Below, piece after piece: positions 1-2,765 of a stretch of 64,000 nt of DNA. The stretch's first letter is position 1. Each line of letters begins with the position of its first letter. Both the position numbers and the translations under genes were made by a program. The stretch is taken from the NCBI RefSeq assembly GCF_054482525.1, contig NZ_CM137006.1. One strand, written 5' to 3'. Below the pieces are notes generated by a model, which was not told where the DNA came from, did not search any database, and saw only the letters and a program-made list of their open reading frames with translations.

Positions 1-157
1 CTTCACGCCAACGTGTTGCTGCATGTTTTTTAAGTTCAGCATTGAGCGCAACCGTAAGGGTGGCGCTCATATTTAAGCCTGCATCACGAGCGCGATTGAC
101 TAACTCACGGTCGACGGTGACGGTCACACTTTGTGTGGTACGTTTTGCAGTCATGAT
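1..157 (-). CDS. ccdA: CcdA-like antitoxin (ribbon-helix-helix), 5' part only; gene runs off the left edge of the window
   Basis: Minus-strand ATG at 155-157 opens a frame translating MTAKRTTQSVTVTVDRELVNRARDAGLNMSATLTVALNAELKKHAATRWRE..., which resembles F-plasmid CcdA (ITVTVD and RxxRWxxEN motifs). It is not in the ORF track because it is cut by the window edge. A chromosomal ccd locus between folA and apaH is known in non-K-12 E. coli. Confidence 0.55.
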   Translation of the reverse strand, partial: MMTAKRTTQSVTVTVDRELVNRARDAGLNMSATLTVALNAELKKHAATRWRE

Positions 158-239
158 ATCGTGCTCCTGTACAATTTATACGTCTAGTAAACACGGATAT
201 CTGCACGTATCAGTGATGCCGGAATTCTAATATACAAAC

Positions 240-2765
<2,526 letters not shown>

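Follow-up and report, generated by a model that had tools for sequence, protein, structure and literature searches.

Results

A ccdA gene cut by the left edge of the window

The window, a stretch of 64,000 nucleotides, is a piece of an Escherichia coli chromosome. At its left edge the minus strand carries the 5' two-thirds of a ccdA gene, separated by 85 bp from folA, which is transcribed in the same direction (Table 1). Translation of the minus strand from 154 to 2 gave MTAKRTTQSVTVTVDRELVNRARDAGLNMSATLTVALNAELKKHAATRWRE, a frame of 51 codons that continues without interruption and runs off the left edge. The ATG start codon of this frame is preceded, nine bases 5', by the Shine-Dalgarno sequence AGGAG.

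By Pfam analysis, the 51-residue fragment was assigned to the CcdA family PF07362 with 46.9 bits (cut-off 22.4) and E = 3.7e-12, over profile positions 2-45 of 71, indicating that the ccdA observation is far beyond chance. The RefSeq protein WP_000125566.1, which carries the annotation 'type II toxin-antitoxin system CcdA family antitoxin', has exactly these residues at its positions 1-51. [quoted passage not shown] The remaining codons 52-77 in the closest genomes read ENAEAIAALNQLADETGCFSDEYRSF and are followed by a stop codon, all of these 26 codons being located to the left of the window edge. The full-length CcdA of 77 residues, taken from 100%-identical genomes, matched PF07362 with 93.1 bits over profile positions 2-71 of 71. 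As judged by sequence alignment, the predicted layout, an N-terminal ribbon-helix-helix followed by a C-terminal CcdB-binding segment, is that of CcdA, its C-terminal 26 residues being those of the 100%-identical genomes. For F-plasmid CcdA the domain limits were given as residues 1-39 and 37-72 (PMC5389731).

A preliminary description of this DNA, made from the letters alone, had noted a CcdA-like frame open on the minus strand from position 157 and adjoining folA. The family, the open frame and the neighbour were all borne out, but the start codon was found at 154 instead of 157. The ITVTVD motif given there does correspond to the beta-strand motif of CcdA, but its letters are SVTVTVD in the fragment (RITVTVD in the F-plasmid counterpart); for the RWxxEN motif, RWRE lies inside the window and EN lies past the edge. 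The same description had rightly pointed out that the list of open reading frames contains only a plus-strand frame here. The ccdA gene is absent from that list because its minus-strand frame leaves the window.

Table 1. Positions of genes, sites and other features in the window.
Feature	Position	Strand	Remark
ccdA, 5' two-thirds	1-154	minus	codons 1-51 and first base of codon 52
ATG of ccdA	154-152	minus	
Shine-Dalgarno AGGAG	168-164	minus	5' of ccdA ATG
ORF, 62 aa	42-230	plus	TTG start; antisense to ccdA; sole frame listed here
folA-ccdA spacer, 85 bp	155-239	minus	presumed ccd promoter/operator and leader; from the sequence
TATAAA, -10-like	175-180		in spacer; best -10 candidate, by eye
GTATAC-like hexamers, at most 1 mismatch	176-181 (GTATAA); 187-192 (GTTTAC); 230-235 (GTATAT)		in spacer
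Perfect 6-bp palindromes	155-160 and 196-201 (GATATC); 168-173 (TGTACA); 222-227 (GAATTC)		in spacer
folA, dihydrofolate reductase	240-719	minus	ORF; core gene, right flank of islet; identical RefSeq sequence WP_000624375.1
ES003 and tpke11 small RNAs	22395-22447, 43546-43623		Rfam, above gathering score
Fimbrial operon and espX1 stretch	about 31600-38800		by correspondence with PCN033 18196-24620
sok of hokC/mokC-sokC locus	40660-40812		Rfam
IS186-type insertion, 1,337 bp	40986-42322		absent from PCN033, 19KM1776, SCU-102
Transposase ORF, 372 aa	41156-42274	minus	within IS186-type insertion
thr leader	57289-57408		Rfam, above gathering score

Closest genomes and the gene beyond the edge

Positions 1-25000 of the window were 100.0% identical to E. 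coli strains 19KM1776, SCU-102 and PCN033, and the rest of the window was 99.98-100% identical to the same three strains except for one IS insertion. In all three genomes the order at this locus is folA, a spacer of 85 bp, ccdA of 234 bp, a gap of 2 bp, ccdB of 315 bp, and apaH in convergent orientation, with the stop codons of ccdB and apaH overlapping by 4 bp. The ccdB gene is thus on the same strand as ccdA and follows its stop codon after 2 bp, which is the layout of a ccdAB operon. It is intact in each of the three and encodes one and the same protein of 104 residues (WP_001160967.1), for which a match of 100.3 bits to Pfam PF01845 was obtained over positions 1-101 of 101. The expectation, raised in the preliminary description, that a leftward extension would meet ccdB and then apaH agrees with these genomes: an intact ccdB-like ORF is present past the edge, the ccdA frame is unbroken, and apaH comes next.

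Since ccdB is located outside the window, its intact state in this chromosome was inferred from the closest genomes. Genomes with 100% identity to window positions 1-900 include both strains with intact ccdB and strains with frameshifted ccdB. For instance, strain CFSAN061763 is 100% identical over this region, yet 13 bp are deleted from its ccdB, and the annotation marks this gene as frameshifted. The assignment of an intact ccdB is therefore based on the match of 25-64 kb to 19KM1776, PCN033 and SCU-102.

The one IS insertion is of IS186 type, encodes a transposase and is bounded by inverted ends of the type ...GGGAGTGATCCCATAAGCGCTAACTTAAGGGTTG; it adjoins the hokC/mokC-sokC type I toxin-antitoxin locus. 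As PCN033, 19KM1776 and SCU-102 all lack it, the chromosome of the window belongs to none of these three strains. Between nhaR and rpsT, the closest genomes carry a chaperone-usher fimbrial operon and the type III effector gene espX1, a strain-variable stretch. The small RNAs ES003 and tpke11 and the thr leader detected by Rfam are ordinary E. coli features.

The folA-ccdA spacer

Within the spacer, the scan for promoters and terminators detected neither a consensus sigma-70 site nor a terminator-like hairpin, and the terminator-like matches in the scan of the locus were located solely inside ccdB, at chance level. The predicted RNA fold of the spacer together with the ccdA start was unremarkable (z = 0.25), and the Rfam scan of the whole window gave no match in 1-1000. 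As no terminator was found between folA and ccdA, read-through from folA is possible. Transcription of ccd may depend on a weak promoter of its own, on read-through from folA, or on both.

In the F plasmid, the ccd operator is 113 bp long and includes at least eight CcdA sites centred on GTATAC palindromes, GTATAC being the sequence of the central sites; the GTATAC-like palindromes are arranged about 12 bp apart (PMC5389731). CcdA(F) alone binds weakly and discriminates poorly between the palindromes, and the specificity comes from chains in which dimers of CcdA and of CcdB alternate (PMC5389731). The preliminary description had proposed a search for autoregulatory palindromes upstream of ccdA. 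Candidate elements were indeed found, three GTATAC-like hexamers and four perfect palindromes, but they are not significantly enriched: for window positions 155-242, these numbers were reached in 20,000 dinucleotide-preserving shuffles at P = 0.10 and P = 0.18, respectively. The middle hexamer is GTTTAC in the window lineage and a perfect GTATAC in both O157:H7 and ST131.

The folA-apaH site in other E. coli strains

In K-12 MG1655 the gap between folA and apaH is only 77 bp long and contains a REP-like palindrome, and ccd genes are absent, as had been stated in the preliminary description. Alignment with K-12 indicated that the ccd islet stands in place of the REP-like palindromic stretch. 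Homology to K-12 resumes at the apaH stop codon on one side and a few bases past the folA stop codon on the other. The boundary between the islet and K-12-like sequence falls at about 222-231 of the window, and genomes lacking ccd align from position 231 onward.

In contrast to K-12, the islet occupies this site in one O157:H7 and one ST131 genome that were compared, and their CcdA protein is identical to that of the PCN033 type. Its presence in O157, also mentioned in the preliminary description, agrees with the literature: ccdO157 is described as a genomic islet between folA and apaH, and this intergenic region as plastic, with REP there in other strains (PMC3184786, PMC7167474, PMC7232551, PMC2654758; citing Wilbaux 2007, Mine 2009).

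The ccdO157 locus of O157:H7 shares with the closest genomes the insertion site, the gene order, the spacing and the 77-residue CcdA (WP_000125566.1). The difference from the PCN033-type ccdA is 1 of 234 nucleotides, and this change is synonymous; the 85-bp spacer differs from that of the window at 2 positions, including the hexamer noted above. More differences were observed for ccdB, at 8 of 315 nucleotides and 5 of 104 residues relative to the closest genomes. With the residue of the closest genomes given first, the substitutions against the experimentally studied O157 CcdB are G10S, E28V, S32R, I44S and T54P.

One further arrangement was noted in E. coli 2017-02-2CC, for which the folA-apaH region (541-1271) contains a 615-bp gene, annotated as 'IS1096 element passenger TnpR family protein', in place of ccdA and most of ccdB, leaving a 72-bp remnant of ccdB. 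It represents one more state in which the plastic folA-apaH hotspot occurs.

Comparison with the F-plasmid and Vibrio systems

The ccdAB system of the F plasmid is the prototype of post-segregational killing systems. The chromosomal pair shares with it both Pfam families and the order of antitoxin followed by toxin, and both chromosomal proteins align end to end with the solved F structures. By phmmer, CcdA residues 8-75 aligned without gaps to residues 3-70 of F CcdA (2ADL/2H3C) with E = 9e-6, and CcdB aligned to 1VUB/1X75 with E = 6e-9, values that mark a distant relationship. The T-V-T-V-D beta-strand and the R-W-x-x-E-N segment are common to F CcdA and the chromosomal CcdA. The NCBIfam equivalogs for F-type CcdA and CcdB (NF010264/NF010262), however, were missed by both proteins, with 38.6 against 100 bits for CcdA and 54 against 147 bits for CcdB; the 51-residue fragment scored 16.8 against the CcdA equivalog. 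As judged from these sequence scores, the chromosomal proteins are homologous to those of the F plasmid but do not belong to the same equivalogs. Because these cut-offs were missed, properties of the F system transfer to the chromosomal pair by homology only.

The C-terminus of CcdB is LDGI in the closest genomes and WGI, containing Trp99, in F CcdB. A closely related chromosomal CcdB was reported to have 34.7% identity to CcdB(F), with Asp in place of the toxicity-critical Trp99 of F (PMC7232551). Given the missed cut-offs and the LDGI C-terminus, the quantitative properties of the F system should not be assumed for the chromosomal one. The two systems also differ in location, plasmid against chromosome, and in the length of the upstream region, 113 bp of operator in F against 85 bp here. 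Unlike F ccdAB, the chromosomal system reportedly does not confer stability on plasmids (PMC2654758).

The best-scoring solved relative of the toxin was the chromosomal CcdB of Vibrio fischeri (PDB 2KMT, 3JSC), to which the closest-genome CcdB aligned over its full length (2KMT, E = 2.7e-15) and with which it shares the C-terminal GI. This protein comes from another genus and another genomic context, and the comparison applies to the toxin only.

Distribution and decay among complete E. coli genomes

The islet was found in 2,024 of 5,426 complete E. coli genomes (37%), always as one chromosomal copy and with apaH under the match; at megablast sensitivity, none was found on E. coli plasmids. 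Window positions 1-900 matched every complete E. coli chromosome, and the ccdA part was covered in 2,022 of the 5,426. All of the 2,021 genomes carrying ccdA (2,021/2,021) had a ccdA at least 99% identical to the window allele. The conservation of ccdB among the carriers was lower: the identity was at least 99% in 46, 95-99% in 1,906 and 90-95% in 72. Two lesions of ccdB were common. The 13-bp deletion, which falls after codon 61, was detected in 259 genomes; in 413, codon 95 is a stop (GGG/GGA to TGA), the ST131 example being one of the latter. Together these affect at least 672 of the 2,024 carriers (at least 33%). Decay of the ccdO157-type system within E. coli has been reported in reviews (PMC2654758, PMC3920263).

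Divergence was then compared between the PCN033-type locus and those of O157 and ST131. For ccdA, the synonymous divergence was 0-0.02 and the non-synonymous divergence was 0; for ccdB, the respective values were 0.04-0.055 and 0.017-0.021. The abutting ends of folA and apaH in the same genomes gave 0.12-0.17 for synonymous and 0-0.013 for non-synonymous divergence. The pattern is consistent with an antitoxin under purifying selection and a toxin on which selection is relaxed.

In this comparison, the synonymous divergence of the islet among the PCN033-type, O157:H7 and ST131 genomes was four- to five-fold below that of the abutting folA and apaH ends. This suggests that exchange of the islet within the species may postdate the divergence of its flanks. 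An overlapping element was considered as the cause of the nucleotide conservation of ccdA and was set aside, because low neutral divergence islet-wide combined with purifying selection on CcdA gives a simpler fit.

Discussion

The gene arrangement, the protein families and the long-range identity to three sequenced strains lead to one reading, in which we have very high confidence. Window positions 1-154 are the truncated ccdA of a type II toxin-antitoxin islet of the ccdO157 type, beyond the edge an intact ccdB is followed by apaH, and the islet sits in an E. coli chromosome closely related to 19KM1776, PCN033 and SCU-102.

A rival reading is that of an orphan antitoxin, in which an intact ccdA stands beside a ccdB disabled by a frameshift, a nonsense mutation or substitutions abolishing its toxicity, so that CcdA is the sole functional product and the two genes have ceased to work as a toxin-antitoxin pair. 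The frequency of the two ccdB lesions among the carriers, the 13-bp deletion in strains such as CFSAN061763 that are identical over window positions 1-900, the five substitutions separating the closest-genome CcdB from the tested O157 toxin, and the decay in E. coli described in the reviews (PMC2654758, PMC3920263) are all consistent with such a state. Against it, the ccdB frame of 104 codons (WP_001160967.1) is uninterrupted in all three genomes with long-range identity, and its product matches the CcdB profile over its entire length. We consider inactivation of ccdB in this chromosome unlikely. The invariance of CcdA across lineages in which CcdB decays would also be expected if selection acted on the antitoxin alone, as in an anti-addiction role, in which the chromosomal CcdA is kept to neutralise CcdB of incoming F-like plasmids and thereby to block post-segregational killing. 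This role was demonstrated for the chromosomal ccd of Erwinia chrysanthemi against F ccd (PMC10305079, PMC2654758), and cross-protection by the chromosomal CcdA of O157 is stated in one review (PMC10886550). According to other reviews, which come from the laboratory behind the experiments concerned, the F toxin instead evades the chromosomal ccdO157 antitoxin, and neutralisation takes place in the reverse direction, with plasmid CcdA acting on chromosomal CcdB(O157) (PMC3920263, PMC10305079, citing Wilbaux 2007). Wherever ccdB is still toxic, moreover, the antitoxin has to be intact anyway, and purifying selection on ccdA is thereby explained without anti-addiction. A role in anti-addiction is quite improbable here, more so than loss of the toxin. 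The ORF list, which gives the plus-strand ORF only, would agree with a third reading, in which the minus-strand frame arises by chance or the plus-strand ORF is the real gene. That ORF is, however, unannotated in the RefSeq records examined, and the minus-strand frame has a highly significant match to Pfam CcdA and agrees in every residue with a curated RefSeq protein. The profile matches of both the fragment and the full-length CcdA, together with the RefSeq identity, refute this reading, to which we assign practically no probability.

The ccdO157-type islet with intact ccdB thus remains the preferred reading, and its low divergence bears on a separate point. Since the synonymous divergence of the islet is low and ccdA stays at least 99% identical even beside a dead ccdB, the islet could be of more recent origin than the chromosome around it, or ccdA could be constrained beyond protection from its own toxin. 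The former may reflect recent recombinational spread within E. coli; the latter may reflect a toxin-independent role of CcdA, either as a DNA-binding regulator or as a guard against plasmid CcdB. We regard this proposal, with its two branches, as tentative and rather doubtful.

For the mode of action, family membership, gene arrangement and conservation were observed at the ccd locus itself; toxic activity, lability and operator binding are attributed to it by analogy. Gyrase poisoning, the ribbon-helix-helix domain, degradation by Lon and ratio-dependent repression come from the F system (PMC5389731), and gyrase poisoning and its neutralisation, known for F, have been reported for O157 CcdB as well (PMC5389731, PMC10886550). 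By this analogy, ccdA and ccdB would be co-transcribed from the 85-bp spacer, and translation of the two is probably coupled because two bases separate the stop codon of ccdA from the start of ccdB. Dimers of CcdB would bind to GyrA and lock gyrase onto cleaved DNA, and the C-terminal half of CcdA would bind CcdB so that poisoning is prevented or reversed; Lon would degrade CcdA. The N-terminal ribbon-helix-helix dimer, the portion of CcdA encoded within the window, would have a weak affinity for the operator, and repression of the operon would come from chains in which CcdA and CcdB dimers alternate, to an extent set by the toxin:antitoxin ratio.

The ccd islet is already known, having been characterised genetically and surveyed across E. 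coli since 2007-2009, and it is routinely annotated by RefSeq. The present analysis mainly updates the survey numbers: among 5,426 complete genomes, 37% are carriers, at least one third of these have a visibly broken toxin, and the antitoxin is essentially invariant. Beyond correct annotation its significance is slight, a strain-variable toxin-antitoxin islet being flagged at a known hotspot, together with the lesson that an ORF list can miss genes cut by the edge of a window. Across the species the antitoxin remains intact, whereas the toxin undergoes drift and frequent inactivation, so that the islet acts like a selfish element in decay and not like a conserved function of the cell.
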